Positions 4,983 to 58,337 of a stretch of DNA of 64,000 nucleotides are shown piece by piece. Made by a program: the position numbers and the translations under genes. This DNA is from Octopus sinensis (lineage: Eukaryota): positions 6,324,001 to 6,388,000 of the forward strand of contig NC_043001.1 of assembly GCF_006345805.1 (NCBI RefSeq), read 5' to 3'. The notes under the pieces are model-generated. The model was not told the origin of the DNA. It saw only the letters and a list, made by a program, of their open reading frames with translations, and did no database searches. Each line of letters begins with the position of its first letter. The first letter of the stretch is position 1.

Positions 4983-5074
4983 AATTAAACAATTTAGGAA
5001 TGGCCTTAACAGGCCATGAGTTATGGCTGCTCTCTCTGGTGGACGAATGGCCTGTTAAGGCCATTCCTAAATTG

Positions 5075-5081
<7 letters not shown>
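4983..5081. repeat. Perfect 35-bp inverted repeat with 29-nt spacer, next to a TA tract
   Basis: AATTAAACAATTTAGGAATGGCCTTAACAGGCCAT (4983-5017) and its exact reverse complement (5047-5081). Confidence 0.95.
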
Positions 5082-11825: not shown

Positions 11826-12367
11826 CGCAGCGTGGAAGGTATTTATAAGCTATTTAAAAACAGCAAAACCGTTATCCTCACTTCAACATTTAAATTTAAT
11901 TTGCCAAAATATCTTCGTCGCTTTGAGACCGCGTCCAGTTCACTGATAAAATTCCGTGCTGCATCTGAGAAAGTAACATTTAGTTCATGATGTGTGTATG
12001 CATGTATGTATATATGTATATATGTATGTATGTATGTATGTATGGATGTATGTATGTGCGTATGTAATATATATGTACCTGTGTGTAGATGTATGTGTGT
12101 AGATGTGCCTGTGTGTGTCTACATGTATATGTACATAATCATACGTTCACATGTACACACACAGACACGTCTACACTCTTACCTAAATACTCATACATAC
12201 ATGTGTATAATCATGCACGCATACATGCAAATGTACACATATGAATTTACACATATACATACACTTACATACATATGACATACATACTTACATACGTATG
12301 TACATACATACATGTATACATACATACATATATACATACATACATACATACATATATACATACATAT

Positions 12368-12406
<39 letters not shown>

Positions 12407-12536
12407 TTTACGAATAAGAGTTTTTACTGCTATTTCAAGCAGGTAGACATACTTAGTATGTCCTTTGATTAATTTTAATTATATATATATATAATATATA
12501 TAATATATATATATATTAATATATATATATAGATAT

Positions 12537-12585
<49 letters not shown>

Positions 12586-12785
12586 GTACGTACGTACATA
12601 CATGTGTACATATATATCATGAACTAACTGTTATTTACTCAGATGCAGCACGGAGTTTTGTCAGTGAACAGGTCGCGGTCTCAAAGCGAAAATACTTTGG
12701 TAAATCAAATTCAAATGTTGAAGTAAATCTAACGGTTTTTGTGCGTTTTTTTTAAATAGCTTATAAACACCTTCCACGCTGCAAT
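11826..12785. repeat. Inverted pair of a ~165-bp element around compound microsatellites
   Basis: 11826-11990 is a diverged reverse complement of 12618-12785. Confidence 0.85.
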
Positions 12786-13189
12786 TGTTCATGTTTCAGC
12801 ACACGCTCTCAGATCAGGATACTTTCTATGCATGTACATATCCGTAATATATAGTATGTATAACATATGATATTTCGCGTGTATTTCTGTATTAATAGCC
12901 TATATAAATACGCATATATTGACTTGAGATGGAAGATGACATGTCTTTGCTCCCGTTCATGATGTCACCTATGATTATATAAAGCGTGATCTCATGAAAA
13001 AGAATGAACATTTGGATATATGGACACAATTTCCTGTTATTGTCTTATCTTGTACCGCTGCTTCCCCGGAGAATGTTTATTTGTTTAAAAACTGGAAAAG
13101 ACGTCACATAATGAAATACTTTATATGAACAAAAATGAGATACGTTAATATTGTATACAACTGATACGCTAATATTGATATACGCTTCT

Positions 13190-13608
13190 CCCGCATGTCC
13201 GACACTCGCATCCCAAAACAGCTCTACGGTGAACTCGGCCAGGGCAAACGCAAAATCGAAGGGCAGAAGAAGCGCTTCAAGGACAGTCTCAAAGTCTCTC
13301 TCAAAGACTTCTCCATCGGCACAGAGACTTGGGAGACACTTGCTGCCGACCGCTCATCCTGGCGCAGCGCAATCACCACAGGAGCAAAGACATCCGAGGA
13401 GAGACGGATTCAGTCAGCAGAACAGAAACGCCAGATGCGGAAAGCCAGAGCCACCTGCACCAATAGCACAGCCCCTACCCACTTCTGCCCCACCTGTGGG
13501 AGGGGCTTTCTTGCCCGGATTGGCCTCACCAGCCACCTCCGGTCTCATAGCAGCAATTCCACCAAATGATGTCAATGGTCATCTTCGAACCCGAAGGACG
13601 AACATTAT
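13190..13608 (+). mobile_element. 5'-truncated RTE (BovB-like) LINE 3' end with C-terminal C2H2 finger
   Basis: ORF 13195-13569: RIPKQLYGEL...KRFKDSLK...DRSSWR...CPTCGRGFLARIGLTSHLRSH; TATACAACTGA repeated at 13154 and 13609 (candidate TSD). Confidence 0.9.
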
Positions 13609-14989: not shown

Positions 14990-16375
14990 AGATGTACTAC
15001 AGTGTCACCTCATCACTACCAGCAGTTTAATGCATTGATCAATGGAGAAGATGAAATGCCTGGCTGGTTGACAAAAGGACGAACAATATTGTGTCCGAAG
15101 GATGCATGAAAGGGAAATGCTACTACAGATCTATTTCTGATTCCAATTAATGTGGAAGTTATTGTCAAGAGGAATTGCAGAAGAAATGTATAAATTCCTG
15201 AATGAGAACTATATATCAACACCCGAACAAAAAGGCTGTAGAAGAAGATGCAGATGTATAAAAGATAAATTATTGATAGACAAAATGGTAATGCATGGTT
15301 GTAAACGAAGGAGAACAAATTTCGGAATGGTCTGATTTGAATATCGCCAAGCTTTTGATTTGATTCCATATGCGTGGATCCTATGATCGAACTAATATCT
15401 CTTTATATAAGAACTGTTTTGAATTGCAAGGAATGTATCGTGTTTCCTGAAGAGAAGCATGGTGGAATAGAAAACGTAACTGACATCTTAAGGAAAAGCC
15501 TGGGACAACCTGGGAATCAGAAAAGGGGTTTTCCAGGGAGATTGCTTATCTCAATTACTTTTTGTTCACTGCATGATATCCCTGATTTTCGTATTAAGGA
15601 AAATGAACCTGGTGTACCAGCTAAAGGGAAAATCTCAAACAATCAAACACCTTCTCTTCATGGATGATTTGAAACTCTACGGCAAGGATGAGAAAGACGT
15701 GAATTCCTTGGGAAATAAAATCCACTATTTTAGTGCTGATATTAGGAGGGAATTCGGACTCAAAGTGTGTGGAATAATCTACCTAAAAAGGTGCGAGGTA
15801 CAGTCCCTAACAGGAAAGGAACTACCGAATAGAGAATTGATTTAACAAATTGAACGGAATGCTGCAAGAACCGTGGTGTACTAGAGTTAGCAGAGATAAT
15901 GGGGAAAGAAATGAAAGAGCAACTGAGTATGGAATATTTCCAAAGATATAGGTTAGTGTTACACTCAAAATTGACCGGATGGAATAAAATGCAAGATGGT
16001 AATACATGGGTGATAGCATGGACAAAAAGACAAGAAAGAAGGTGACAGAAGGCGCAGCTTTCCACACTAAGAGTGACACCGATATAATGTCCTTGTCCAG
16101 AAGAAAGGTTGGGAGGCGTTCGATCAGTTGCCAGGGCTGTAGAAAAGCAGAAGAAAACAGCTTAGGGTGGTATGTAAAATGTACCGTGGATCCATTCTTG
16201 AAACACACGAAGAAGTTTGTCGTCATCAGAACTGAGAATTGTGTAATGAAAGAAAAATTTAAAGAAGAAATGATCACAAAGATAGAAACAACATGGAAAG
16301 AGAAAAATGCATGGAAAATTTGCAAGCGATTCAAATGCCAAGACAGATAAAGGAGACTGGGGGCTATGGATTTCA
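14990..16375 (+). pseudogene. Decayed R4/Dong-like reverse transcriptase region
   Basis: [23 protein letters not shown]...[35 protein letters not shown]; multiple stops and frameshifts. Confidence 0.9.
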
Positions 16376-20893: not shown

Positions 20894-20943
20894 ATCGATA
20901 TATATATTTATATATGTATGTATTAATATCATACAAATAATTA

Positions 20944-21188
20944 TTGGCTTTCAAGTGTGAGATTTTCTCCACGCGTATTTTTTTCGAAATTCTGGTACAT
21001 GATATTTGGATCTCCTTGTCATAAGCATGAGTGGCTGTGCAGTATGTAGATTCCTTACTAACCACATAGTTACAGGTTCAGTCCCACTGCATAGAAACTT
21101 GGGTAAGTGTTGTATTGCTACAGCAAACCCAAACCTTTGATTGGATTTGGTAGGCGGAAATTGAAAGACGCGCGTTGTATGTATACAT

Positions 21189-21262
<74 letters not shown>

Positions 21263-21536
21263 ATATGTATATATGTATGTATGTATGTATATGTATATAT
21301 ACAACGCGCGTCTTTCAATTTCCGCCTACCAAATCCAATCAAAAGTTTGGGTTAGCTGTAGCAAACAACACTTGCCCAAGTTTCTATGCTGTGGGACTGA
21401 ACCTGTAACTATGTGGTTAGTAAGGAATCTACATACCGCACAACCACTCATGCTTATGACAAGGAGATCCAAATATCATGTACCAGAATTTCGACAAAAA
21501 TACGCGTGGAGAAAATCTCACACTTTAAAGCCAATA
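20944..21536. repeat. ~240-bp inverted repeat (unique flank plus SINE1 5' half) around a TA/TATG tract
   Basis: 20944-21185 is a close reverse complement of 21297-21536. Confidence 0.92.
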
Positions 21537-21637
21537 GTGGTTTTATCTCTAATTTAATATATAATATTTTACTATAAAATTGGATTCAATCCTAAATCTG
21601 ATTTTTCCCTGTAAGTTTGGATTTATTCCCTAATATT

Positions 21638-21685
<48 letters not shown>

Positions 21686-22020
21686 ATGTATGTATATAAT
21701 AAAATATTAGGTAATAAATCCAAACTTAGAGGAAAAATCAGATTTAGGATTGAATCCAATTTTATAGTAAAATATTATATTATATTAAATTAGAGATAAA
21801 ACCACTATTAGGCAAATCAAACAATGAAAAACTTAAGCCAATACATAAAATTAATTAATTTATATTATTTTAAATATATATCAAAAGTATTAAAAGTTTA
21901 ATAAAAGATAATGAGCAAAACACTACGATCGTTTCATGGCTGTCCAATCCGTAATAATTCGAGTTATGGTTACAGTCAATCTTCAGGTAATTGAAATATT
22001 TATCTTAGCGAGGTTTAGCA
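21533..22020. mobile_element. Tail-to-tail pair of family B elements meeting at (TA)n
   Basis: 21533-21643 is the reverse complement of 21697-21810; both match 4760-4875. Confidence 0.85.
21918..21992 (-). ncRNA. Type I hammerhead ribozyme, second family B copy
   Basis: Minus strand UAC-CUGAAGA-UUGACUGU...ACAGCCAU-GAAA-CGAUCG-UA-GUG. Confidence 0.7.
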
Positions 22021-22612: not shown

Positions 22613-23026
22613 ACTCTTTTACTCTTTTACTCTTTTACTTGTTTCAGTCATTTGACTGCGGCAATGCTGGAGCACCGCCTTTAATCGAGCAACTCGACCC
22701 CGGGACTTATTCTTTTGTAAGCCCAGTACTTATTCTATCGGTCGCTTTTGCCGAACCGCTAAGTAACGGGGACATAGGCATTCCAGCATCGGTTGTCAAG
22801 CAATGCTGGGGGGACATATACAGACATACAAACACACACACGCACATATATATATACGTATATACGACGGGCTTCTTTCAGTTTCCGTCTACCAAATCCA
22901 CTCACAAGGCTTTGGTCGGCCCGAGGCTATAGTAGAAGACACTTGCCCAAGGTGCCACGCATTGGACTGAAGCCGGAACCATGTGGTTGGTAAACAAGCT
23001 ACTTACCACACAGCCACTCCTGTGCC
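22613..23026 (-). mobile_element. Full-length SINE family 1
   Basis: Colinear with 35409-35812, including the (TAAAAGAG)n tail. Confidence 0.92.
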
Positions 23027-23032
23027 TATATG

Positions 23033-23545: not shown

Positions 23546-23876
23546 TATATATATATATATAATATCATTGAAATAAAGATTTCCGAAAATAAATTGTAAC
23601 ACGTCTTCAAGGTGATTCAAAATTTGTTTAATCCAAAGTGAACATAGGAATGATTTCTAGTACGCAAAGGCAGTACTAGAAATATTTCCTTGGTTCATTT
23701 TGGATTTAGTTAATTTTGGATAACCTTGAAAGCATTAGGTTAACATTTATTTTCGGAAAATTTAATTACAATATTTTTTATATATCTAAATACGCTAATA
23801 CAACAGAAACAATTGTTGGCTTTGTAAGATGAATTCTAAAATTTAAAATTTGACTTCTCGCTCTCTCTATCACTCT

Positions 23877-23915
<39 letters not shown>

Positions 23916-23918
<3 letters not shown>

Positions 23919-24249
23919 CAGATTTACAGAAAACAAAAGACGAAGGCAGGTGTAAGAACAATCAGTTGTATTAGTTCAACGCTCGGGGGCACAATATGTA
24001 TATAGGTATATGCGTGTGAGTTTGTATATGTCATGTAGCAGAATGATTTTAAATGCATTCTTCTACTCAATCATGTTTAAAAATATATACACACACACAT
24101 GCATACAATCACACACAGACATACAATCACACACATACACACAAACTCACACGCAGATACGTGCATGGATATTCTTCCCCGAGCGTTAAACCAACACACC
24201 TGCTTGTTCCTTCACCTGCCTTCGTCTTTTGTTTTCTGTAAATCTGAAC
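23916..24249. repeat. TA-flanked fold-back with ~60-110-bp arms
   Basis: GTTCAGATTTACAGAAAACAAAAGACGAAGGCAGGTG at the left end and its exact reverse complement at the right end. Confidence 0.88.
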
Positions 24250-24250
24250 G

Positions 24251-24308
<58 letters not shown>

Positions 24309-24335
24309 TACATATGCGTGTGTATGTATGTGTAT

Positions 24336-24381
<46 letters not shown>

Positions 24382-24604
24382 TATATATATACATATATAT
24401 ATGTATATATATATACATACATATATATATGTATATATATATACCTATATATATATATACATACATACATACATATGTGTGTGTGTTAATTTCACACAAA
24501 CAACTGTTGGCTTTATAAGGTGTGATTTTCTGTTTACATATTTTTGTTGTGTAAAACTTTCAATTTCTCGAAATTCTGCTACGTGATATTTGGATTTCCC
24601 TATA

Positions 24605-24765
24605 GACAGGAGTGGCTGTGTGTTGTGTAGCTTCCTTACCAATCGCCTGATTCCAGCTTCAATCCCACTGCACGGCAACTTGGATGAATGTCTCGTGCTA
24701 TAGCCTCAGGGCAACCAAAGCCTCGTGAGTGGATTTCATAGGTGGAAACTGAAAGAAGCCGATTG
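24605..24765 (+). mobile_element. SINE family 1, 5' half
   Basis: CAGGAGTGGCTGTGTG...TCCCACTGC...GGAAACTGAAAGAAGCC. Confidence 0.8.
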
Positions 24766-24789
24766 TATATATATATATATATATATATA

Positions 24790-25468
24790 CTATTATAGGA
24801 TGAAGCTTTTTTAGAGAGAAAAAATTCCATCAAAAAATGTCGCAGCATATTAAAATACCTTTAAGGTTAACATTATAAACAACTTATAAATAAGGGCTAA
24901 AGAAAATTATTTCAATGCCAATATGCTGATAACAGACTTTTAAATCGTCAATTTCCAGATATTATTTACTCGCTACAGAAAAAAACACGAAGATCTTAAA
25001 TCTGGGAAAGCCGGCCAATAGAATTTTTTTAAAAGTTCGTTATTTCTATATTGAATCAATTTCGGAATTAATCTCATAATAGATTTTTTCCTTTTCAGTA
25101 GAAAATACGAAAGGATATAAATAAGATACTTATATGAGCCCATGGAAAAAAGCCGAAGCAAAAATCACGTGTACATATAAGTACATATAAAATTCTTTGG
25201 TCAGCCTCAGCTCACGTTTGAACTGTTCTCCACTACATATTGGCATTGAAATAATTTTCTTTAGCACTTTTTTATAAGTTGTTTATAATTTTAACCTTAA
25301 AGGTATTTTATAATGTTGCCACATTTTTTTATGGAATTTTTTTCCGTAAAAATCTTCATCTTATAATAGTAGTAGGCTTATTACTACTCGCTGTAGGGAT
25401 TGGTAACCACTATAAGCTGTAGTGGAGAACAGTTCACACGTATGCTGAGGCTGACCAAAGAATTTTAT
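24790..25468. mobile_element. Head-to-head pair of a circularly permuted hammerhead-bearing unit (family C)
   Basis: Interleaved inverted repeats A (24790-24924)/A' (25237-25369) and B (25189-25237)/B' (25419-25468); hammerhead at 25043-25104. Confidence 0.75.
25043..25104 (-). ncRNA. Type I hammerhead ribozyme with G8-to-A change
   Basis: UUUCUA-CUGAAAA-GGAA..AAUCU/AGAUU..UUCC-GAAA-UUG(AUU)CAA-UA-UAGAAA; all three helices pair. Confidence 0.7.
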
Positions 25469-25719
25469 TTTTAGATATATCTGGAGTACTTATATACTTG
25501 CATTTGAATGGACTCTTTATTAATAAACATTATAAATATTCATTCTGCACGGGAAATGAAGCTTTAACTTCTCTAAAATCCCAATGAATGATTAGCTACT
25601 TTCGCCCGGTCAAGTTTTCTCTTGCAGCATCCCTTTCTTACAGTTTACTCTTCACCAATACTAAGCTTCGTCAGGAGATTAGTACCAGCTGATGAAGGAA
25701 ATGGAAGTGTTTGAGGATT

Positions 25720-26350
25720 AGGATTACAGTTTAATTCAAGTAACACTTCGATCATCAAACACCTCCAAGAACTAGAAAAATAGTCAAAGCTGGGTCATGA
25801 GTTCTGATCTGATTCAGTCTAATCTTATCAAAACGGATGCTCTCTGCTCATGATTGCAAGGAAAATTGAGTTTTCGATAATCATATCGAACGAATATGAT
25901 ACAGGTTAAGATTAAATAAATTAGGAAATCATTCATACCCTTGTATAAACCCGCAAAATGTTATGCTATACATTTGAAAGGATCTACCTATTATGAACAG
26001 TTAAACCAAAACGAAACAGTTAATGCGGAGAAGTATTGCCGCCAATAAGTAGTAATGCACAAAGATTTACATCAAGCCATTTGTCGTAAAGGAATATTGC
26101 CCTTACATGATGATGTAAGACCGCATATAGTACAAGTCACCCCTGAAAAAATCGGGACAATAAATATTGAAAGTATGCTTCTTCTACCCTGTTCGCCTGA
26201 TTTGGTTCCATGTCACACTCCTCGTTTCAGATCGTTGCAACACTATATTATAATAATTGTGATGATATTAAAAATGATATTGAAAGTTTCTCTACTTCGA
26301 AACCTGAAGCATTAAGTTGCCCGAGGTATCAAGAACTAGCCAAGAAAGTG
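25720..26350 (+). mobile_element. Decayed mariner transposase
   Basis: RKGILPLHDDVRPH and PCSPDLVP...FRSLQH motifs (ORF 26055-26315). Confidence 0.8.
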
Positions 26351-26848
26351 CTAAAATGTGACAAAAATTCATTTTCAAATTAATATATCAGTCGTTAAGA
26401 AGGAATATTTCTGTGAAAGACAATTCCATCGTCGTTTTCGTCTAATAACACACAAAACGGACAGCATATTTCTATGAATACAAGAGCATCCCTAATTTAT
26501 TATCACATGGGTTTCGATATATATTTGTACAACGAAGGCAAATATTTTAAGAAAATTCTCGTAACAGTACAAATCCAAATGGAATGAAATCAAGAGGAAA
26601 ATATTCTAATTTGAATTGTGATTATTGTAGAGAGATTATTACACAGATTAACAAAATGACATTCCTTGACAAACGTCATCAACAGCTTTCAGCTAAGTAC
26701 CAAATGAAACTACTTGCAATTATATATTAATTATTCATTGATATTTGCTTCGCATAGAGACAATCTCTCACGTATGTAAACACTAATACATGCGTTTATA
26801 AAGACGCTATATATATATATGTGTGTGTGCGCGTATGTATGTATGTAT

Positions 26849-34668: not shown

Positions 34669-35408
34669 CTGTATGTGTGTGACTGTGTGTGTGTGCGTGA
34701 GAGAGAGAGAGAGATATCATGTGCACGATGTCTCGAGGTAATAAATGGTCTTCTTAAGAGTAATTTTAAAAGTACAGGATGATTACGAAAACAAGGTGCG
34801 TTCCTTTGCAAACTTGTTCCTCTACATAAGAGTTACCTTTCTATATTCTCGGGTTTCTATCATATTTGGTATTTATTTGCGCATTTTCCACATTCACAAA
34901 AGCCTCATAAATTACAACTAAAGATCTGTGGGTTTTTTTTTTTTTCGATTACATTGACTGCAGCGCACAATTCGTACTCGTTTTCTCGACTCGAAAAAGA
35001 GAAAAAGTTAAAGATGACTTTGATAGAATTTGAGCGCAGAGCCGGAAAAAAAAGTTAGCGAAATGTTTTGTCCCCAAAACTAATGATTCAGGCTGGTAGT
35101 AGCCTTAATTCTTATAACTAGCGGGAGCCGAGAATGGATCACGAACATAATAGTAAAACTGTTGCGTTATTCCTGAAAACTTTATCTAAAAATCCTGAAA
35201 GCGTAATTTCTGTTGTATGTGTATCAAAAGACAGTCGTTCATCTGCTATTCATTGAAAAGTGAAGGAAATTGGAATACGATGATTACTTAATGCACTTTC
35301 TAAATATACATTATATACTTAATGCACAATTTTATAAACTTAATACACAGCACTCATAAAATAAATATTCACTCGTATTTCTCCTTTTCTTACGCAGGAG
35401 TGGCTATA

Positions 35409-35812
35409 GGCGCAGGAGTGGCTGTGTGGTAAGTAGCTTGCTAACCAACCACATGGTTCTGGGTTCAGTCCCACTGCGTGGCATCTTAGGCAAGTGTCTT
35501 CTGCTATAGCCCCGGGCCGACCAAAGCCTTGTGAATGGATTTGGTAGACGGAAACTGAAAGAAGCCTGTCGTATATATGTATATATTTATGTGTGGTTGT
35601 GTGTCTGTGTTTGTCCACCTAGCATTGCTTGACAACCGATGCTGGTGTGTTTACGTCCCCGTCACTTAGCGGTTCGGCAAAAGAGAACGATAGAATAAGT
35701 ACTGGGCTTACAAAGAATAAGTCCCAGCGTCGATTTGCTCGACTAAAGGCGGTGCTCCAGCATGGCCGCAGTCAAATGACTGAAACAAGTAAAAGAGTAA
35801 AAGAGTAAAGAG
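35409..35812 (+). mobile_element. Full-length tRNA-derived SINE family 1 (reference copy)
   Basis: A box TGGCTGTGTGG, B box GGTTCAGTCCC, CORE-like CTTAGGCAAGTGTCTT, internal TA/TG repeat, (TAAAAGAG)n tail; 13-nt head duplication just upstream. Confidence 0.93.
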
Positions 35813-35961: not shown

Positions 35962-36126
35962 TGCTATTGTTGTTTATAGCCTCAGGAAGAATCTCCTCCG
36001 GCTGGTTAACCAAACACTGTCTGTTTCCGATTAGTATTTGCGAAGGAAAAGGGGAATTGGACATAGACAATGTGTCGTTAGCCAGCTGGAGGAGATGTCT
36101 TCTTGGGGCTATAAACAGCATTAGTA
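35962..36126 (+). repeat. ~71-bp imperfect inverted repeat with ~22-nt loop
   Basis: Arms 35962-36032 and 36055-36126 aligned by hand. Confidence 0.9.
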
Positions 36127-37495: not shown

Positions 37496-40400
37496 ACGGT
37501 TCGCCAAACAAGATCTAAAAAATGAATTAGCGGTTCGCCAACCGTGTTCGATAAAATGCATCAGCCGTTCGCCAACAGTGATCGATAAAATGACTTAGCA
37601 GTTCGTCAAACTTGATGGCTAAAGTGAATTAGCGGTTCGCCGGACGACATCGATAAAATGACTTAGCGGTTCGTTGACCGTGATCGATAAAATGAATTAG
37701 CGGTTCGCCAACAGTAATCGATAAAATGATGTAGCGGTTCACCAATCGTGATCGATAAAATGACCTAGTTGTTCGCCAACTGATCGATAAAATGACTTAG
37801 CAGTTCGCAAAACAAGATCGATAAAATGATCTACCGTTCCACAACCTTGATCGATAAAATAACTTAGCGGTTCACCAAACGTATCGATAAACGTGATCGA
37901 TAAAATGACTTAGGGGTTCGCCAACAGTAATCGATAAAATGAACTAGCGGTTCGCTAAACGTATCGATAAAATGACTAGCGGTTCGCCAAAAGTGATCGA
38001 TAAAATGACTTATCGGTTCGCCAAACGAGATCGATAAGATGACTTAGCGGTTCGCCAAACGTATTTGATAAAATGACCAAGCGGTTCGCCAACCGTTTCG
38101 ATAAAATGACTTAACGGTTCGCAAAATGAGATCAATAAAATAACTTAGTGGTTCGCTAATCGTTATCCATTCGATGAAATGAATAGCGGTTGGCCAACTG
38201 TGATTGATTAAATAACTTAGCCGTTCGCCAAAACTGATCGATAAATGAATTAGCGATTCGCCAAACGAGATGGACAAAATGACTTAGCGGTTCGCCAAAC
38301 GTGATCTATAAAATGACCTAGCGTTTCACCAACCGTGATCGATATAAATGACATAGCGGTTCGCCAAACGATATCGATAAAATGATTTAGCGGTTCGCCA
38401 CATGAGATCGATAAAATGACTTAGCCGTTCGCCAAACGATATCGATAATATCCATAAAATGAGTTGCTGGTTCGCCAACCGTGTTCGATAAATTGACTAA
38501 GCAGTTCGCAAACCATGATCGATAAAAATGACGTAGCGGTTCGCCAAACGAGATCGATAAAATGAATTAGCGGTTCCCAACAGTGATCGATAAAAATGAC
38601 CTAGCGGTTCGCCAACCATGATCGATGAAATGACTTAGCAGTTTGCCAAACGAGATCGATACAGTGAACTAGAGGTTCGCCAAACGAAATGGATAAAATG
38701 AAATAGCGGTTCGCCACCAGTGATCGATAAAGTGACTTAGCGGATCGACAAACGAGATCGATAAAATGAATTAGCGTTTCGCTAATCGTGATCGATAAAA
38801 TGACTTCGCGATTCGCCAATCGTGATCGATAAAATGACAGCGGTTCGTCAACCGTGATCGATAAAATGACCTAGCGGTTCGCCAACCATGATCGATAAAA
38901 TGATTTAGAGGTTCGTCAACCGTTTTCGATAAAATGACCTAGCAGTTGGCCAACTGTGATCGATAAAATGAATTAGCTGCTCGCTAATCATGATCGATTA
39001 AATGACTTAGCGGTTCGCCACCTGTGATGGATAAAAATGATCTAACAGATCGCCAACAAGATCGATAAAAAGACCTAGCGGTTCGCCAAACCTAACCGAT
39101 AATATGACTTAGCGGGCTGCCAACTGTGAACGATAAAAATGACTTAGCTGTTCACCAAACGTTCTCGATAAAATGACTTTGCAGTTCATCAACGATGATC
39201 GATACAATTCTAGCAGTTCGCCAACCGTTATCGATAAAAAGTACTAGCGGTTCGCCAAAACGAGTTCGATAAATTAAAATAGCGATTCGCTAAACGTAAA
39301 CGATAAAATGACTTACTGGTTCGCCAACCGTGGTCGATAAAATGAACTATCGCTTCACCAACAGTGATCGATAAAATGATCTAGCATTTCGCCAAACATA
39401 ATCGATAAAATGAATTAGCGGTTCGTTTGTCATATTCGATGAAATGACATAGCGGTTCGCCACCATGATCGATAAAATGAATTAGCGGTTCACCAAACCT
39501 GATCGATAAAATGATTTAGCGGTTCGCCAAACGCCATCGATAAAATGACTTAGCGGTTCGCCAACCGTGATCGATAAAATGACATAGTGCTTGGCCAACA
39601 GTGATCGATAAAATGACCTAGCGCTTCGCCAAACGTAATCGATAAAATGAATTAGCGGTTCGTTTGTCATATTCGATAAAATGACTTAGCAGTTCGCCAA
39701 CCATGATCAATAAAATGAATTAGCGTTTCACCAAACCTGATCGATAAAATGATTTAGCGGTTCGCCAAACGATATCGATAAAATGAATTTGCGGTTCAAC
39801 ACTGGAGATCGATAAAATGACTTAGCCGTTCGACTAAAGATATCGATAAAATAAATTAGCGGTTTGCCAAACGAAATCGATGAAAAGACCTAGCGGTTCG
39901 CCAACCGTCAGCGATAAAATGAATTAGCGGTTGACCAACCGTCATCGATAAAAATGACCTAGCGATTGGCCCAGCGTTATCGATAATATGACATAGCGGT
40001 TCGCTAATCTTGATCGATAAAATGATTAGCAGTTGGCCAACTGTGATCGATTAAATGACTTAGCCGTTCGCCAAAACATGATCGCTAAAATGACCTAGCA
40101 GTTCCCCAAACGTGACCGATAAAATGACTTAGCGGTTCACCCACCATGATCGATGAAATGACATAGCGGTTCGCCAAGCGCTATCGATAAAATGACTTAG
40201 CTGCTCGCTAATCTTGATCGATAAAATGATTAGCGGTTGGCCAACTGTGATTGATTAAATGACTTAGCCGTTCGCCAAAACATGATCAACAAAATGACTT
40301 AGCAGTTTGCCAAACGAGATCGATACAATGACATAGCGGTTCGCCAAACAAGAAGGATCAAATGACCTAGCGGTACGTTGACCGTGATCGATAAAATGGC

Positions 40401-41810
40401 TTAGAGGTTCGCCAACCGTGAACGATAAAATGACATAGCTGTTCGCCACAGTGATCTATAAACTGAATTAGCGGTTCGCCATCGTGATCGAGAAAATGAA
40501 TTAGCGGTTCGCCAACCGCGGCCGATAAAATGACTTAACGGTTCGCCATCTTGATCGATAAAATAACTTAGCGGTTAGCCAAACGTATCGATATAATGAC
40601 TAGCGGTTCGCCAAATGTAATCGATAAAATGACTTGTGATGGCTGTCAGACTTAGATGTTCACCAAACGTGATGGATAAAATGATCTAGCGGTTCGGCAA
40701 GACTGATCGATACAATGACATTAGCGGTTCGCCCAACGTGATCGATAAAATGACCTGGCGGTTCACCAAAAGTAATCGATAAAATGAATTATCGGTACGC
40801 CAAACGTGATCGATAAAATGAACTAGCGGTTCGCCAAACGTGGTTGATAAAATGACCTAGCGGTTCGCCCACGAGTTCGATAAAATGAATTAGCGGTTCG
40901 CTAATCCTGATCGATAAAATGATTAGCGGTTGGCCTCTGTGATCGATAAAATGAATTAGCGGTTCGCTAATCGTGATCGATAAAATGATTGGCGGTTCGC
41001 CAACCGTGATCGATAAAATTAACTAGCAGTTCGTCATAAATAATCGATAAAATGACTTAGCTGTTCGCCAACAGTAATCGGTAAAATACTCTAGCGGTTC
41101 GCCATCCATGATCGAAAAAATGAAATAGCAGTTCACGAAACCTGATCGATAAAATGACTTAGCGGTTCGCCAAACGTTATCGATAAAATGACCTAGCGGT
41201 TCGCCAACCGTGATCGATAAAATGACCTAACGCTTCGCCAACAGTAATCGATAAAATGAACTAGCGCTTCGCCAAACGTAATCGATAAAATGAATTAGCG
41301 GTTCGCTAATCGTGATCGATAAAATGATTAGCGGTTCCCAACTGTGATCGATAAAAATGACCTAGCGGTTCGCCAACCATGATCGATAAAATGACTTAGC
41401 AGTTTGCCAAACGATATCTATAAAATGAATTAGCGGTTCGCCAAATAAGATCGATAAAATGACGTAGCGGTTCGGCAAACGTGATCGATAAAATGAATAG
41501 CGGTTTGCCAAACGAGATCTAAAAAATAACCAGCGGTTCGCCAACCATTACCGATAAAATGAATTAAAGTTTCGCCAAACATGTTCGATAAAATGAAGTA
41601 GCGGTTCGCCAAACGATATCTATAAAACGATCTAGCGGTTCGCCATACGTGATCGATAAAATGACCTAGCAGTTCGCCAACCATTCTCGATAAAATGAAT
41701 TAAAGTTTCGCCAAACATGTTCGATAAAATGACCTTGCGGTTCGCCAACAGTGATCGATAAAATAATATAGCAGTTTGCCAAACTTGATCGATAAAATGA
41801 CCTACCGGTT
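37496..41810. repeat. 34-bp minisatellite, roughly 125 copies
   Basis: Consensus GACTTAGCGGTTCGCCAAACGTGATCGATAAAAT; period counted at 38281-38314; copy number estimated as length/34. Confidence 0.97.
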
Positions 41811-42054
41811 CCTCAGGATATGCGGGATGCTAACATCATTACGCTTTACAAACACAAAGGTGACCGTGGTGATTGTAACGATGACCGTGGAATATCTCTT
41901 CCAAGCACCGTTGGAAAGGCCTCTGCTCGCCTTATCCTGTCCAGGCTGCAACTGCCTGCTTCTCGAATTTATCCAGAATCGCAGTGTGGCTTTAGAAGAA
42001 GCAGATCAGCTATTGACATGATATTCTCCATACGCCAACTGCAGGAGAAATCCA
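41807..42054 (+). pseudogene. RTE reverse transcriptase fragment (N-terminal RT motifs)
   Basis: VPQDMRDANIITLYKHKGDRGDCN..RGISL...PESQCGFRRSRSAIDMIFSIRQLQEK. Confidence 0.92.
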
Positions 42055-42310
42055 GATTCTGGATAAATTCGAGAAGCAGGCAGTTGCAGCCTGGACAGGA
42101 TAAGGCGAGCAGAGGCCTTTCCAACGGTGCTTGGAAGAGACATTCCACGGTCATTGTTACAATCACCACGGTCACCTTTGTGTTTGTAAAGCGTAATGAT
42201 GTTAGCATCCCGCATATCCTGAGGAACCGGTAGGTCATTTTATCGAACACGTTTGGCGAACCGTTAATTCATTTTATCGATTATGGTTGGCGAACTGCTA
42301 GGTCATTTTA
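42055..42310 (-). repeat. Inverted duplicate of the minisatellite/RTE junction
   Basis: 42055-42245 is a near-identical reverse complement of 41790-41980, followed by about two further inverted monomers. Confidence 0.95.
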
Positions 42311-42682: not shown

Positions 42683-43091
42683 TCTTTTATTCTTTTACTG
42701 GTTTCAGTTCTTGGACTATGGCCATGCAGGAGCACCGACTTTAGTTGAACAAAACGACCCCGGGACATATTCATTGTAAGTTTAGTGCTTATTCTATCGG
42801 TCTCTATTGCCGAACCGCTAGCATACGGGAACGTAAACACACCAACATTCTAGCGATGATGTGGGGGGGGGGCAAAAACAAACACACATACACAGACACA
42901 CACACAAACACACGTAAGTATATTATATAATGGGCTTCTTCTGTTTCTGTCTACCAAATTCACTCACAAGGTTTTGATCAGCCTGAGGCAACAGTAGAAC
43001 ACACACTTAACCAAGGTGCCACGCAGTGGGACTGAACCCGGGACCATGTGTTTGGTAAGTAAACTAATTATTACACAGCCACTCCTGCGCC
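42683..43091 (-). mobile_element. Full-length SINE family 1
   Basis: Colinear with the reference copy. Confidence 0.9.
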
Positions 43092-43214
43092 TATGTGTGT
43101 ATATATATATATATTATATATATACATATATACATATATATACATGTATATGTATATATACATATATATATATGTATATATAATATATATATATACATAA
43201 GTATATATACACAT

Positions 43215-48220: not shown

Positions 48221-48613
48221 ACTCTTTTTACTCTTTTACTTGTTTCAGTTATTTGACTGCGGCCATGCTGGAGCACCGCCTTTAATCGAGCAAATCGACC
48301 CCGGGCCTTATTCTTTTGTAAGCTCAGTACTTATTATATCGGTCTCTTTTACCGAACCGCTAAGTAACGGGGACATAAACACAGCAGCATCGGTTGTCAG
48401 GCAATGCTAGGGGGACAAACACAGACACAGAAACACACACACACACACACACACATCCATATACATATATACGACAGGCTTCTTTCAGTTTCCGTCTATC
48501 AAATCCACTCACAAGGCATAGCAGAAGACACTTGCCCAAGATGAAAAGTGGGACTGAACCCAGAACCATGTGGTTGGTTAGCAAGCTACTTACCACACAG
48601 CCACTCCTGCGCC
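48221..48613 (-). mobile_element. SINE family 1
   Basis: Colinear with the reference copy, small internal deletion. Confidence 0.9.
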
Positions 48614-49180
48614 TATTTCATTTTCATGTGTTTCGTATATTAAAACTCAACAGATTGAATTTCTGAAGATAAAATTATTTTAGATTTCTATCTCGCGTTT
48701 TTCCGCCAACAGCCAAAGTTTGGATTGCCTTCTGAATGAAGGTTTCTCGAGATACTTCTATGGATACTGATCTAACACCCGCTTTTTGTGTACTACACTA
48801 TAATACCGAACTTGCACATGTCCCTCAAGTTCGTCATCATAATGAAAATGGTAGGTGAGAAGATGAAGACAATTGTCCCTTACGAGTTGAGAATTTAAAA
48901 ATTGTAAAGTTCATGGAACAATGCTGAAGGGATTTTGTTTATAAGTCAAAAGGAAAGTAAATTATATATTGCTTAATAAGTAAAAATGATGACACTAATT
49001 GTTTATATTTGCTTTTTTTTTTACCTTAATTGAATCTGCACTCTTTACAAACCTAATTAGATTTGACCTTATGTTTTACACATAGGCCATTACCGGTGGG
49101 ATGAGTATTGTTTATGAAGCACACTTAGACGAAAATCTCCGGACCAGGTCTCGGATGAAGACGCTATACTTAGAGAGCAA

Positions 49181-50911: not shown

Positions 50912-51305
50912 GCTTTTCATTATATTTTGCCTGTTTCCATCAAAAGATTGCGACAATGCTGGAGCAACAACTTGAAAAATATTTAGCAGAACTTATTTTT
51001 AAGCGTAGTACTTATTCTAACGTTAACTTTTTATAAACCACTAAGTTACGGGAATGTAAGCGCACCAACACCGGTTATCAAACATTGTCGGTGGACAAAC
51101 AGATGAACACACACACACAGAAACACAGGCACATACACACACACGACGGACTCTTGCAGTTTCGGTTTAACAGATCCACTCATAAAGGTTTCATCGAGCG
51201 GAAGCTATAGTAGAAAATACTTGCCGAAGATGCCACGCAGTGGGAATGAACCTGGAACTCTGTGGCTGTGAAGCAAGCTTCTTACGACTCAGTAATGTCT
51301 GCGCC
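50912..51305 (-). mobile_element. Diverged SINE family 1
   Basis: TGCCACGCAGTGGGAATGAACC and ATGCTGGAGCA motifs. Confidence 0.8.
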
Positions 51306-52959
51306 TCTGATGTATAGCATACATAAAATTGTTGTATGTCTCTAGTCGAATAACTATAGAAATATATATGATGTAACCAGTTGAACAAATTCAGTTCCGT
51401 AACGAAAAAGAAATGTCCTTAAATATTATGAACACTTAGTAGTATATTCATAAAGCCACTTCCTGTTTAATGACATTCGCTGCACTTTCAGTAAATCTAG
51501 ATCTTCAGGTTACCCAGAACTGGCTCTGAGCTTTGCAGAAATTCAATAAAGGCGATGATGTCCTTCTCAACTTGCAATTATATCTGTTATGTTTAATTCC
51601 CTTACGAAATAATCTCCCATTAGATTCAATCAGACTTTCACCTCTTGGAACTCTAACTTAAATTCACAACGTCGTTTTGTCTCTTATTTTCACGGAACGC
51701 ATTCTATACCACATTGTGTTAAGTCCCGCTTTACCCTTTGTTCGTTTCTGTTCAACTGTCGAGAAAATACAAACAGCACACATCTCACGAAAAGAACAAC
51801 CTGTTAATAACGAACAGCTCACAACTAAATCTCACACGTTTGCTACACTTGTTAGATTTTATTCAAAAACGAAGATCTCCTTTAGCAAATGCATATTCTT
51901 TAACATAGCAAGGATAACATCTCAACAATAGACTTGTCCTTTTAAGGCTCAAAGATACTTTGTGCCACCAAAGGCATCGAATCTGTACAGCTTCAAGTCG
52001 ATCCACACAAAGGCTTATTTGCTCCGCATCTGAGGCGATGCTGAAGCTGCACAAAAAGACATCTTTCGATCCAGAATTGGATCGCAAATAAAATAACTCG
52101 TAGACAGCGCATGACATATGACCCCAAGCACGCTGTCTCCATTTTTCTGCCTTTCATCTTTAACACTAATGTCTAATTTCTGCTTGCCAGAGATTGCTAA
52201 ATCAATGCAACATTCCGTCAATCATTCCCCACCCCTTTACCGAGACCTCTACTCTAATAATTTTTGCTGTACCGAACAAAATCTAAACACCACACTGATC
52301 AATACAGCAGGTCCTTCTTTTGCACAACGTTGGTTATCTGGGTTTCCAATCTTGCAGGTGTACTTTGAAAAATTTCAAAATACAAGAACCATAATGGCAC
52401 CATATTCTACAATATAAGAAGATCTACAATGGCCGTGGCTCCTGCACCTTCTTCAGATCCATAGGTTAAAAAAGAAATAGATATAATAATTCACATATTT
52501 CCTTGAGTTTTAGGTAATAATTTATCGGCAGTTTAATGTCCATAAATTCTATTTCATTGGCTGGACACCATATTAAGTAGCAACCAGAAAACATTGGCGT
52601 GGTTTAAACAATCGACATTAAAAAGTATATTTTGGCACATTCTTTAAACTTTGGAACAATTCACAAGTAGCGTGATTTCCAAAGATTATCCAACGTGAAG
52701 GCAATAAAGCTGCTAGTTAATAAGTATATTAGATCATTCCATTGGAACGTTGTAAATAACTCATATGATGCATTCCAGTGACCTTCCTTGTACAATGCAT
52801 GAGTGATCTCTCGTAACTAACAATGTTTCAGAAACCATAATTCTTGCAACATAAGAACGGTTCCGTTGTGTCTGGCAGAACATATTGACAAACATGTCTA
52901 GACAAATTGTGGAATAAATTATAGTAACAATTTGATCTGGATCCTGTACATATAATGTT

Positions 52960-53046: not shown

Positions 53047-53051
<5 letters not shown>

Positions 53052-54127
53052 GAGAGAGTGGGGGAGCACGGTTTATTCGTGATCAGAGTTAATACTGTGA
53101 TCAGAGATAACACTATATTTCGATGAAAACTACAAAAGTTTCCTAATCAAAATACTACAATTAAACGATTCTAATATGTTGATTTGTTTTATAACATGTA
53201 TTTAGTGATTAGTTTTGTTTTATCTAAGTATAAATCATAGTTTCCGTGCTGTGAATATATGAATAATAAGTTTATTTTTTCTTTGTCATATACGTCTGAA
53301 ATAAACTATTTACATAGTAAATTATTGTATTAAAATCAATCTTTCTAAATCGTTTATTAGTCGTATTGTTAGGATAAAAGGTAGTCATATAATCATATCA
53401 AAGGGAAAGGGTATCAATTATTGATTTTCCTAGAATCTATATTCCATATTTTGATAATATAACATATGTTGTAACAGTTCGAAACAACCAGTTTGAAATC
53501 CTCTCTTCAAAATATTATATTCCCTGACAGTTTAAACCATGCATCAAGATTAGATACACAAATGCAATAGATAACATACACAATATTTCATGTTCCATTT
53601 CGTCTGGTAGAAATTTGATATTGAAAATTATATCAAATATTTGAAATTAGCAAAAAAAAAAATCATTAATCCACTGTATTATTAATTAAACATTATATTA
53701 TTAAATTAAATCCATAAAACATGCAAACATAATATTTCATATATTATCGATGCGAACAGACTTCAAATATAACATAACATATATTAATATTTAAATATAA
53801 TATGACATGTATAAACATCATGCGTAAACTAACAACATAAAACAAATTATTTTGAAAGTGTTAATGTAAATGGAAACTAATATTATTTAATTAGACGGAA
53901 GGAATGTAAGTATAGATAGATATATACAAATATATATATATATGTGTGTGTGTGTATATATATATATGTGTGGGTGGGTGAGAGAGAGATTAAGCCCATA
54001 ACATACACAATGTTAAATGAAATATATTATAAAGTTGATATATACAAATATAAGCATATTTAATTCCCTCTATGTGAGATGCGCATACATACACACACAC
54101 ACAGATATTTGTATATAATACAGACAC

Positions 54128-54193
<66 letters not shown>

Positions 54194-55080
54194 CAGAGAG
54201 AGAGTGGGGGAGCACGGTTTATTCGTGATCAGAGTTAATACTGTGATCAGAGATAACACTATATTTCGATGAAAACTACAAAAGTTTCCTAATCAAAATA
54301 CTACAATTAAACGATTCTAATATGTTGATTTGTTTTATAACATGTATTTAGTGATTAGTTTTGTTTTATCTAAGTATAAATCATAGTTTCCGTGCTGTGA
54401 ATATATGAATAATAAGTTTATTTTTTCTTTGTCATATACGTCTGAAATAAACTATTTACATAGTAAATTATTGTATTAAAATCAATCTTTCTAAATCGTT
54501 TATTAGTCGTATTGTTAGGATAAAAGGTAGTCATATAATCATATCAAAGGGAAAGGGTATCAATTATTGATTTTCCTAGAATCTATATTCCATATTTTGA
54601 TAATATAACATATGTTGTAACAGTTCGAAACAACCAGTTTGAAATCCTCTCTTCAAAATATTATATTCCCTGACAGTTTAAACCATGCATCAAGATTAGA
54701 TACACAAATGCAATAGATAACATACACAATATTTCATGTTCCATTTCGTCTGGTAGAAATTTGATATTTGAAAATTATATCAAATATTTGAAATTAGCAA
54801 AAAAAAAAAATCATTAATCCACTGTATTATTAAATTAAACATTATATTATTAAATTAAATCCATAAAACATGCAAACATAATATTTCATATATTATCGAT
54901 GCGAACAGACTTCAAATATAACATAACATATATTAAATATTTAAATATAATATGACATGTATAAAACATCATGCGTAAACTAACAACATAAAACAAATTA
55001 TTTTGAAAGTGTTAATGTAAATGGAAACTAATATTATTTAATTAGACGGAAGGAATGTATGTATAGATAGATATATACAA

Positions 55081-55112
<32 letters not shown>

Positions 55113-55285
55113 ATATATATATATGTGTGGGTGGGTGAGAGAGAGATTAAGCCCATAACATACACAAAGTTAAATGAAATATATTATAAAGTTGATATAT
55201 ACAAATATAAGCATATTTAATTCCCTCTATGTGAGATGCGCATACATACACACACACACAGATATTTGTATATAAATACAGACAC

Positions 55286-55336
<51 letters not shown>

Positions 55337-55340
55337 ATAT
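53047..55340. repeat. Near-identical tandem duplication, unit ~1146 bp, TA-bounded
   Basis: CAGAGAGAGAGTGGGGGAGCACGG begins at 53047 and 54193. Confidence 0.95.
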
Positions 55341-55515
55341 ACACAAAATAATAGTTATCGCCATACTAATATGGCATTCTTATAAAAATAAGAAAAAGCT
55401 GTCCGCTTATTAGCTCCATGAGGCCATCGCCTTAAGTTAGCTATTTGATACACAAACTGTATCCATATAACCTTCGAACAAGGGAGGTCAGTCGCTCCAC
55501 ACTACTTGACTGGCA

Positions 55516-55557
55516 GCTACAGACGCGTTTCGGAGTATTGCCCCTTTTCAATGCAGC
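55516..55557 (-). ncRNA. Minimal type I hammerhead ribozyme, U3-A8 core variant
   Basis: GCUGCA-UUGAAAA-GGGG(CAAUA)CUCC-GAAA-CGCG-UC-UGUAGC. Confidence 0.8.
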
Positions 55558-56047
55558 GTAGCCAGCCAGTAGGTGTCGCTTCCGACAATCTCTGTTCGAT
55601 GGTTTTATTTACCTAGTTTCGGTGGAATACATCCACTTGTTTTCAATAATAGAAATATTAAAATAACTAAGTCTCTCTAAAAGAGAACAGCGGCAGCGTT
55701 CCCGGAAAATAATAGTTATCGCCATACTAATATGGCATTCTTATAAAAATAAGAAAAAAGCTTGTTCGAAGGTTATATGGATACAGTTTGTGTATCAAAT
55801 AGCTAACTTAAGGCGATGGCCTCATGGAGCTAATAAGCGGACAGCTTTTTTCTTATTTTTATAAGAATGCCATATTAGTATGGCGATAACTATTATTTTC
55901 CGGGAACGCTGCCGCTGTTCTCTTTTAGAGAGACTTAGTTATTCTAATATTTCTATTATTGAAAACAAGTGGATGTATTCCACCGAAACTAGGTAAATAA
56001 AACCATCGAACAGAGATTGTCGGAAGCGACACCTACTGGCTGGCTAC

Positions 56048-56089
56048 GCTGCATTGAAAAGGGGCAATACTCCGAAGCGCGTCTGTAGC
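56048..56089 (+). ncRNA. Same hammerhead with A15.1-to-G change
   Basis: Reads GAAG-CGCG-UC instead of GAAA-CGCG-UC. Confidence 0.7.
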
Positions 56090-56409
56090 TGCCGGTCAAG
56101 TAGTGTGGAGCGACTGACCTCCCTTGTTCGAAGGTTATATGGATACAGTTTGTGTATCAAATAGCTAACTTAAGGCGATGGCCTCATGGAGCTAATAAGC
56201 GGACAGCTTTTTTCTTATTTTTATAAGAATGCCATATTAGTATGGCGATAACTATTATTTTCCGGGAACGCTGCCGCTGTTCTCTTTTAGAGAGACTTAG
56301 TTATTCTAATATTTCTATTATTGAAAACAAGTGGATGTATTCCACCGAAACTAGGTAAATAAAACCATCGAACAGAGATTGTCGGAAGCGACACCTACTG
56401 GCTGGCTAC

Positions 56410-56451
56410 GCTGCATTGAAAAGGGGCAATACTCCGAAGCGCGTCTGTAGC
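56410..56451 (+). ncRNA. Same hammerhead with A15.1-to-G change
   Basis: Identical to 56048-56089. Confidence 0.7.
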
Positions 56452-56693
56452 TGCCGGTCAAGTAGTGTGGAGCGACTGACCTCCCTTGTTCGAAGGTTAT
56501 ATGGATACAGTTTGTGTATCAAATAGCTAACTTAAGGCGATGGCCTCATGGAGCTAATAAGCGGACAGCTTTTTTCTTATTTTTATAAGAATGCCATATT
56601 AGTATGGCGATAACTATTATTTTCCGGGAACGCTGCCGCTGTTCTCTTTTAGAGAGACTTAGTTATTTTAATATTTCTATTATATATACACAC

Positions 56694-56724: not shown

Positions 56725-58295
56725 GTATATAGATATATACAATTATATATATACGTATATATGTATGTATCGTGTACGCATTCATGCCTATGTAGACACA
56801 TATTGCACATATTTTGGCCGAATTAATATAAAAGTTGTTCAGAATTATAATTTTCAGTCATCATAAAAGCGATGACATAATGCATTTGTAGATTTTCCTA
56901 TTAATTTCCCGCCAAAGAGACATTGAAATATACCTTCACGCTTCGGGCTGAGGAACTTCACCAGCAGCAAAAGCAAACAATAAACACGAATAAAGTAATT
57001 ATTAAGAAGTTTCACACCATGCCCCCCTCCATAACACCGTTCCGAATCAGCAGGTTTTTGAAAGAATAAAATCGGTGAGCAGATTCCATTTAGAATGGTC
57101 CACGACTTCTGTGTTAGAGTTATCTCTTTTGGAAAACGACATACAGGAAGGGTGAACTCTGCTAACACTTAGACTTCTTGTATGTCGATTTCCAAAAGCT
57201 CCTACAATTTCTTGATGAACAAATCTTCTGGACCAAATACTACTGGAAACCAAACTCTATGACACAATTTCTGCCTAAAACTGAAATATCACTTTAGCTA
57301 TGAAGTTAGTGCAGACTTCATTCAGTTCGACATATGTAATCAAAAAGACAATGCATCCAGTGTTGCGTTTTTGTAATACTTATAGCTTATTGCTTCATTC
57401 GAGACTATAGTATTTATGTGATCTGATAGTCTTTAAATAATAAATGGGTGTTTGTTGAACAATGGTATAGATGTTAACCGTTGTTTAGAGAAGTATAACA
57501 CCAGATTTTAAGTGTTTCCACACTGAAATCATGAACTAAGAGACTCCTTAATCGAAAAGGAATAATCCTTCTATGATAACCTTTAAAACACTTGTGTATC
57601 TGTGTCCGGATTTAGTTTTCACAGTGTTGCTGCATTTGAACACCTATTTCATGCTTTACCCATTATTTTTTCTGAAAACTATATCTATTTTCGAAATGAT
57701 AATAACATTTCTCTTCTAGTTTATCTTTCCCATTATTGTCTTGCCTAGTTAAATATGTTTAGCAAAAAGACTGACTCTTTCTGATAAGAATTAGATATTT
57801 TTCTTTCCAAATAATCTTTCGAGTGTAAATTCTAATTTGAATCAATCAGTTACAATTTAAGTGGGACAAAAAAGATTGGCACATCTCCATTTATGTATTC
57901 ACACATAGGAGATAGAATATTTTTTGCGCAGAATAATATTTTCATGTCTCTTTTGATTTTTGCAAGATTATATTCAATTATACCCTGTTATTCTGTTCCA
58001 AAATTAAATTTCCTAAGTATGGTTTTATGGTATAATATGTTTTCAGAAATGCATATCTCACAAAACAATATATGTTGTTTATTTCAAGAAAAATAAAACG
58101 TGTCTGTTTTCAGAAAACAGAGAGCAATTAGCGAAAGTCGAAGATTTTAACATACTATCGGTGACTACATTTTATCTGCAAACATAAAAAATAGGGAAAA
58201 ATCAAAATGTAGTATCTATATATTTTACTCATAAGTAAATTTATCTGCAACAAATTTTATATTCGTCTACAGATGCAAATCATTTGAGAAGTGTC

Positions 58296-58337
<42 letters not shown>

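Follow-up and report, generated by a model that had tools for sequence, protein, structure and literature searches.

The stretch of DNA analysed here (the window) comprises 64,000 nt of the Octopus sinensis contig NC_043001.1, positions 6,324,001 to 6,388,000 of the forward strand. It is repeat-rich animal DNA, with a GC content of 0.28-0.42, 115 rows of tandem repeats and fragments of SINE-like, LINE and mariner elements. Close to 25 kb, a TA tract is followed by a structure of interleaved inverted repeats whose two arms meet head-to-head, and whose left arm carries a hammerhead ribozyme motif (table 1). A young hammerhead family at 55 kb serves as a comparison throughout.

Table 1. Features of the 25-kb element and of the comparison element (positions are those of the window)
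Feature	Position	Strand	Basis or remark
Left arm, outward B - middle with hammerhead - A, about 0.9 unit	24792..25237	-	Alignments; 3' end abuts TA tract, 4 nt common with target
Segment A, left copy	24788..24925	-	124/138 vs 25236-25371
Segment B, left copy	25175..25237	-	48/51 over 25187-25237; 56/63 ungapped to 25175
Head-to-head junction, 2-nt overlap of arm 5' ends	25236..25237	.	
Right arm, A - x - B plus short extension, about 0.5 unit	25236..25490	+	Alignments
Segment x, right arm only, closes cycle A-x-B	25372..25417	+	Sole copy in window
Right-arm end: 15-nt indel vs left arm (predicted small hairpin), then 10 nt homology, last 5 common with target	25469..25490	+	1/154 controls
Candidate 8-bp target-site duplication, left copy TATATACT, end of (TA)n tract	24784..24791	+	17/1043 controls equal
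Candidate target-site duplication, right copy	25491..25498	+	
Type I hammerhead motif	25037..25110 (read 25110-25037)	-	Relaxed descriptor and fold prediction
Hammerhead helix I	25104-25099/25048-25043, 6 bp; outer 4-bp stem 25110-25107/25040-25037	-	
Hammerhead core CUGAAAA	25098-25092; C3 at 25098, A8 at 25093	-	
Hammerhead helix II	25091-25064, 4 bp + 5 bp	-	
Hammerhead GAA	25063-25061	-	
Hammerhead helix III, palindromic	25060-25050, 4 bp by canonical geometry	-	
Predicted hammerhead cleavage	between 25049 and 25048	-	
Comparison element, young 362-nt hammerhead family (U3-A8 core), head-to-head	55345..56683	.	Junction overlap 2 nt at 55761-55762

Self-BLAST recovers two pairs of inverted copies. 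The copies of A match at E 5e-47 and those of B at E 1e-17, the right copy of B spanning 25418-25480 (its secure part is 25418-25468). Their order along the forward strand is A...B A'...B', which bears out what an earlier note, made from the letters alone, had seen. From the junction outward, the segments run B-middle-A in the left arm and A-x-B in the right. At the junction itself, which had earlier been placed near 25237, the arms overlap by 2 nt at their 5' ends, with zero added bases. Segment x (46 nt) and the middle of the left arm each occur once in the window, and no further copy of any part of the unit was found in the 64 kb. All four adjacencies (A-x, x-B, B-middle and middle-A) can be read directly from the two arms and, because all four are visible, the source must have been tandem or cyclic. 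The earlier note had proposed just such a template, A-x-B-hammerhead-A, of about 500 nt; the reconstituted cycle is 494-496 nt, or about 510 nt if a 15-nt indel near the right end is included. Neither arm of this element is longer than one unit, and the tandem is a deduction from both arms taken together. A single locus is without the power to separate a circle from a linear tandem transcript as the source.

The two segments are equally diverged (12 substitutions in 136 positions of A and 3 in 51 of B, Fisher p 0.76), as one event predicts, and this fits a single insertion event. The differences between the arms (A and the secure part of B) are 3 transitions and 12 transversions, and nine other repeat pairs together show 91 transitions and 71 transversions (Fisher p 0.013 against the 25-kb arms, post hoc). 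Many of the arm differences lengthen T runs in the right arm.

Immediately outside the two arms there is a direct repeat of 8 nt, TATATACT, which encloses A, x and B together. It was absent from the earlier note and is an addition of the present analysis. The boundary of this candidate target-site duplication was chosen after inspection and the repeat lies partly within the TA repeat, and we therefore read the control frequency as moderate support: when the 13 candidate left ends were compared with 1043 control stretches, 17 of these (1.6%) gave a match of the same length. A direct repeat round the whole structure points to one insertion, 24792-25490 (699 bp), into a TA tract, and on the sequence the 25-kb feature is most likely a complete single insertion with these limits. 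The right end had been placed at 25468. It is probably at 25490, where homology with the left arm, interrupted by the 15-nt indel, has continued for 10 nt more; the anchored extension score at this end was equalled by 1 of 154 controls. The tips of the insertion match the target over 4 nt (left) and 5 nt (right). By arithmetic on the alignments, the right arm has a tail that reaches 123 nt farther than the end of the left arm.

Both flanks are themselves repeats. On the left, the TA tract follows the head of a SINE-like repeat that is frequent in the window. This family has a central microsatellite and is represented at 24480-24784, 22640-23030, 35406-35787, 42701-43094, 48241-48616 and 50993-51335; the copy to the left of the insertion is without its 3' half, and some of the copies are accompanied by a recurrent upstream segment of 120 nt. 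On the right lies a decayed mariner transposase (about 25640-26450, with stops and frameshifts) that matches SETMAR (E 2e-11, over 25974-26246), Mos1 (E 7e-6) and Pfam Transposase_1 (E 0.003). The 5' terminal repeat of this relic was not found within 24000-25800 (best 19/36), and two further frames of the relic had no PDB match.

The neighbouring mariner relic, the abundance of inverted pairs in the window and the TA that bounds the A pair on both sides would all suit a linear miniature inverted-repeat DNA transposon (MITE), with A as its 136-bp terminal repeats and a TA duplication, together with an unrelated later inverted duplication of B, the hammerhead being there by chance. We regard this as very improbable. 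The end of B lies no more than 2 nt from the inner end of A, which would happen in about 1.6% of cases if the two were independent. A and B are equally diverged, and A has no other copy in the window. Moreover, x-B lies outside the A pair and is enclosed with it by the 8-bp repeat, which is not the layout of a Tc1/mariner-type MITE, and the hammerhead is unmatched in 40 shuffles (below). Such a history would have to combine two coincidences, and it accounts for neither the 8-bp repeat nor the hammerhead. Less probable still, to the point of being negligible, is an assembly or read fold-back artefact. Near-identical tandem duplications do occur elsewhere in the window (56771-58295 / 58385-59909, 99.9%), but the arms at 25 kb are about 10% diverged, each has sequence absent from the other, and the target duplication flanks them.

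The motif in the middle of the left arm was matched with a relaxed hammerhead descriptor, written with the motif in view, that allows either pyrimidine (C, U) at position 3 and either purine (G, A) at position 8. This descriptor has four matches in 128 kb (both strands), namely the 25-kb motif and three copies of the 55-kb family. In 40 local dinucleotide shuffles the mean was 0.2 relaxed matches, and 0/40 gave one equally good. The canonical CUGANGA descriptor has no match on either strand of the window. A search of Rfam with the whole window returned no hammerhead among the best 150 of 185 weak matches; the 24.8-25.5 kb region had five matches and the 55-kb region seven, none of them a hammerhead. 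Because the intact-core copy at 55 kb was missed too, the negative at 25 kb is uninformative.

The motif agrees with the consensus of metazoan hammerheads from Penelope-like elements (PLEs) in its U-rich 5' flank, its G10.1-C11.1 and its palindrome. Helices I and II form in the predicted ensemble with a pair probability of about 0.6. In the monomer helix III is predicted not to pair (0.01), and the minimum is 2.4 kcal/mol more stable than the active-type fold. The 11-nt near-palindrome of helix III is unstable as a monomer hairpin and pairs with a second copy at -6.7 kcal/mol; this self-pairing resembles the dimer design of metazoan tandem hammerheads (PMC4209133, PMC3088659). The earlier description of a hammerhead with three paired helices and a C3/A8 mismatch thus holds for the mismatch and for three helices that can pair, but not for helix III in the predicted monomer. 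Likewise, 'circularly permuted hammerhead unit' is apt for the unit, which is permuted, but the hammerhead itself is of the ordinary type I.

Positions 3 and 8 are paired in active hammerheads, as C-G or as the natural U-A (PMC4209133), and in a PLE hammerhead single changes at position 3 or 8 abolish cleavage (PMC11167929). The 25-kb core is without this pair, for which reason the present copy is probably inactive. At a drift of 4-5% per arm, the chance of at least one change in a 13-15-nt core is 41-54%, so decay of the 3-8 pair needs no special explanation. Decay is thus a plausible reading of the mismatch, and ancestors with C-G or U-A are both compatible with it. In the hammerhead literature consulted (including PMC4209133) no description of C3/A8 as a natural active core was found, and we think it most improbable that C3/A8 is family-wide, with the ribozyme switched off or rescued by a protein.

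As in retrozymes, the unit is short, non-coding and without LTRs; its GC content is 0.30-0.31. Rebuilt as a circle, it has a predicted fold of -115.5 kcal/mol (z -4.2, with 0/60 shuffles as low), and with the right-arm copies the circular fold has z -4.3. The antisense circle also folds well (z -2.6 and -3.1). Of 22 background windows, out of 49 candidates, one had a fold as low as z -4; it holds a known hairpin. The natural left arm alone has a significant fold (0/60 shuffles) and the right arm alone does not (11/150). Over 12 bp, x is complementary to the segment that follows the ribozyme. We considered this pairing as evidence for the cycle and set it aside, as 84/224 controls pair with x too and the circular ensemble gives it a probability of about 0.

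Nothing in the element suggests a protein. Pfam identified no family in the six hammerhead-sense frames of the two arms, nor in three frames of the 55-kb neighbour, and a search of 1.84 billion proteins found no relative of the unit at E 0.001. Protein-level searches for other copies, or for the start of a PLE ORF, gave none at E 0.01. The longest stop-free frame that overlaps the insertion is 74 aa and lies mostly outside it. Neither arm holds the ORF of an autonomous PLE, with RT and GIY-YIG endonuclease, and by eye no autonomous Penelope ORF was recognised in the ORF list of the window. A 34-codon frame at 25077-24973 (minus strand) has its ATG in loop II of the hammerhead, within a 63-codon stop-free stretch, and has no protein relatives.

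This frame bears on an explanation in which the locus is the remnant of an autonomous PLE. A-x-B, at 233-255 nt, would then correspond in size to a pseudo-LTR. The short cycle would come from an internal deletion that only this copy or its parent carries, and no retrozyme family would be involved. PLE pseudo-LTRs of 181-218 bp, with an inverted copy and 8-10-bp duplications, have been published (PMC3846280), and the ORF of an Anolis element likewise begins within its hammerhead (PMC11167929). The frame in loop II closes after 34 codons, however, and no protein relative was found; only 46 nt separate A from B, and the young family at 55 kb shows that short cyclic units exist in this genome. We therefore consider a PLE remnant unlikely.

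The 55-kb element provides the closest comparison within the window. The two units are unrelated in sequence (best E 0.3) and alike in anatomy, as the earlier note had recognised, and the likeness extends to the 2-nt junction overlap, the one-sided tail, the direct repeat and the TA target. The arms at 55 kb are 418 and 923 nt long, head-to-head, with a tail of 60 nt, and a 12-nt direct repeat in TA tracts (55334-55345 / 56681-56692) flanks the element and is a likely target-site duplication. Both arms are longer than one unit even without an extra turn, and so display a tandem or cyclic template directly. As a circle, the 55-kb unit is predicted to fold with z -5.1 (antisense -5.0). The arms differ by 3 substitutions and 1 indel. 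The claim that the 25-kb element is the older of the two accords with its arm identity of about 90%, against 99% at 55 kb, although the gap could partly reflect two different template molecules.

Within the right arm at 55 kb, turns 1 and 2 share all three substitutions relative to the left arm, one of them at core position 15.1 (GAAG for GAAA). The third turn keeps the left-arm base at the only comparable site, 56668, and this weakens a rolling-circle reading. The substitution pattern fits a later one-unit duplication better, and we rejected the array as evidence of rolling-circle copying: from its sequence it looks like such a duplication, biological or of the assembly. Tandem duplications also lie beside this element (53048-53906 / 54194-55057, 97%, and the 99.9% pair given above). 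The flanking duplicated regions (53048-55285 and 56771-59909) are TA-bounded and could be microsatellite-mediated duplications or assembly redundancy.

Taken with the type of unit, this anatomy leads us to the reading that we hold to be the most likely. On this reading a single insertion at 25 kb brought in a retroelement that is not autonomous and depends on Penelope machinery (a non-LTR retrozyme), and its ribozyme has probably been disabled since then. The sequence itself shows two arms in cyclic order, with a junction overlap, the hammerhead motif, a flanking repeat and a target rich in TA; the steps of insertion are drawn from the literature. PLEs form partial tandems with an inverted 5'-truncated copy and a one-sided tail of 30-40 bp, and are biased towards TA microsatellites (PMC8557442). 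Their insertions are mostly head-to-head, with 8-10-bp duplications or microhomology junctions (PMC3846280), and a PLE protein, once purified, was found to cut AT-rich DNA on both strands and to extend both, starting at internal sites of the RNA (PMC11167929). The 25-kb element shows the same inverted, 5'-truncated, head-to-head copy and an 8-bp duplication in AT/TA-rich DNA; its tail of 123 nt, like that of 60 nt at 55 kb, is longer than the published 30-40 bp.

Insertion may accordingly be pictured as follows. A tandem source locus would be transcribed and, in an active family, the palindromic helix III would allow two tandem hammerheads to fold as a dimer and excise monomers. The GIY-YIG endonuclease of an autonomous PLE would cut AT-rich DNA once on each strand, with a stagger of about 8 nt. 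Each 3' end could then prime reverse transcription at an internal site of the RNA, with target matches of 4 and 5 nt; matches of this length could be due to chance in AT-rich DNA, and PMC11167929 reports initiation without homology to the cut DNA. The two cDNAs would end prematurely and be joined via the 2-nt microhomology, and fill-in would give the duplication. Because the left arm crosses the ribozyme cleavage site, its template would have been either uncleaved tandem RNA or a religated circle, and we give these roughly even odds. The main substrate of the PLE protein is RNA uncut by its hammerhead (PMC11167929).

Self-priming of a single cDNA (fold-back) is the published explanation of head-to-head Penelope repeats (PMC3846280), and could have produced an element of the same family here if the asymmetry arose later, either because a right arm of 1.5 units collapsed by one unit between direct repeats or because the left arm lost its tail. 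One-unit changes do occur, as the gain indicated at 55 kb suggests. Moreover, if one unit is taken from the right arm at 55 kb, leaving 561 nt, and then the 82-nt offset and the 60-nt tail, the result agrees with the 418 nt of the left arm to within the junction overlap, but this fit is partly forced by periodicity. The 25-kb junction lacks palindromic symmetry, the starting points of its arms lie 182 nt (or 312 nt) from each other on the unit, and fold-back needs an additional event without a trace. Overall, fold-back is a possibility that we would not favour, and the route through two templates is somewhat more likely.

The nearest described systems supply the parts separately. Animal non-LTR retrozymes (Cervera and de la Pena 2020, PMC7229834; Li et al. 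2026, bioRxiv 10.64898/2026.07.22.740005) have in common with the 25-kb unit a non-coding unit of a few hundred nt with GC below 50% (here 0.31), one type I hammerhead per unit with a weak palindromic helix III, a predicted self-paired circle and a target duplication of more than 4 bp. They are described as head-to-tail arrays, whereas the 25-kb element has less than one unit per arm, head-to-head. At about 495-510 nt its unit exceeds the 150-450 bp of Cervera 2020 and falls within the 51-972 bp of Li 2026. Its core is mismatched, and the 'active' definition of Li 2026 (two consecutive complete units) would keep it out of the active class. In corals, mussels and axolotl, circular RNAs are expressed from short non-coding hammerhead repeats, and PLEs have been proposed as their helper (PMC7229834); such repeats also match PLE pseudo-LTRs in Xenopus (bioRxiv 10.64898/2026.07.22.740005). 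Both papers treat retrozymes as derived from PLEs.

Insertions of endonuclease-containing PLEs (Arkhipova 2013, PMC3846280; Craig 2021, PMC8557442; Frangieh 2024, PMC11167929) share the inverted, 5'-truncated, head-to-head copy with its one-sided tail, as well as the 8-10-bp duplication, the AT/TA-rich target, the microhomology junction and a hammerhead copied across its cleavage site. The 25-kb element differs in having no RT or GIY-YIG coding sequence, a cycle of about 0.5 kb instead of 3 kb and a longer tail. Hammerhead pairs on opposite strands, 100-700 bp apart, have already been reported (PMC4209133). With the minimal hammerheads of PLEs (Cervera and de la Pena 2014, PMC4209133) the 25-kb motif has in common the type I topology, the U-rich 5' flank, a long helix II, G10.1-C11.1 and the palindromic helix III; it has longer helices I and III, the C3/A8 mismatch and no unpaired base after A9. 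The U3-A8 core described for these minimal hammerheads is that of the 55-kb family. The Chlamys non-autonomous elements, e.g. MRC1 (Craig 2021, PMC8557442), are likewise non-autonomous PLE passengers that form pseudo-LTRs and tandem insertions, but they belong to green algae and resemble the 3' end of their partner, and the N-terminal-endonuclease PLEs (Naiad, Chlamys) are described there as being without canonical hammerheads.

The type of unit is known and the scar is known; we did not find the two described together. The main texts of PMC7229834 and bioRxiv 10.64898/2026.07.22.740005 describe no inverted insertions. We found no report of head-to-head retrozyme insertions with a Penelope scar, although subscription journals and repeat databases may hold such families. 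So far, the partnership between retrozymes and PLEs has been argued in those two papers from shared hammerheads, co-occurrence and pseudo-LTR similarity, and integration scars are not among the arguments that their main texts use. At 25 and 55 kb, the Penelope scar (head-to-head truncated arms, a tail, an 8-12-bp duplication and a TA target) is found on short non-coding hammerhead cycles, which makes both the partnership and the question of circle versus tandem testable with one genome. It is conceivable, if doubtful, that the retrozymes here were inserted from both broken ends by borrowed Penelope enzymes copying ribozyme-made RNA circles. If this were true, junctions, tails and arm variants across the genome would be the first direct sequence proof of the retrozyme mobiliser and of the form of its template. 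Searches for retrozymes that are based on tandem repeats would overlook sub-unit inverted insertions of the 25-kb kind. The single decayed copy at 25 kb is probably without a function of its own. In the related Octopus vulgaris, PLEs are reported to have been recently active (31 families, 336 insertions; PMC13282606).

Other repeats of the window are recorded here as side observations. Local inverted pairs lie at 20942-21536, 21568-21771, 23916-24249, 11865-12739, 4984-5080, 23567-23772, 35964-36124 and 60428-61369, several of them centred on microsatellites. One of these (20942-21177 / 21302-21536) is a 96% identical fold-back of the SINE-like head round a TA tract. A 4.3-kb satellite with a 34-nt unit occupies 37497-41811, and by eye its consensus resembles part of the SINE-like 3' half. 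LINE-like coding fragments were recognised by eye at 13165-13569, 15492-16350 and 41796-42233. For the RTE-like fragment at 13165-13566, the searches gave 51 relatives at E <=1e-15, the named ones being from gastropod (69%), crab, coral and sea urchin.
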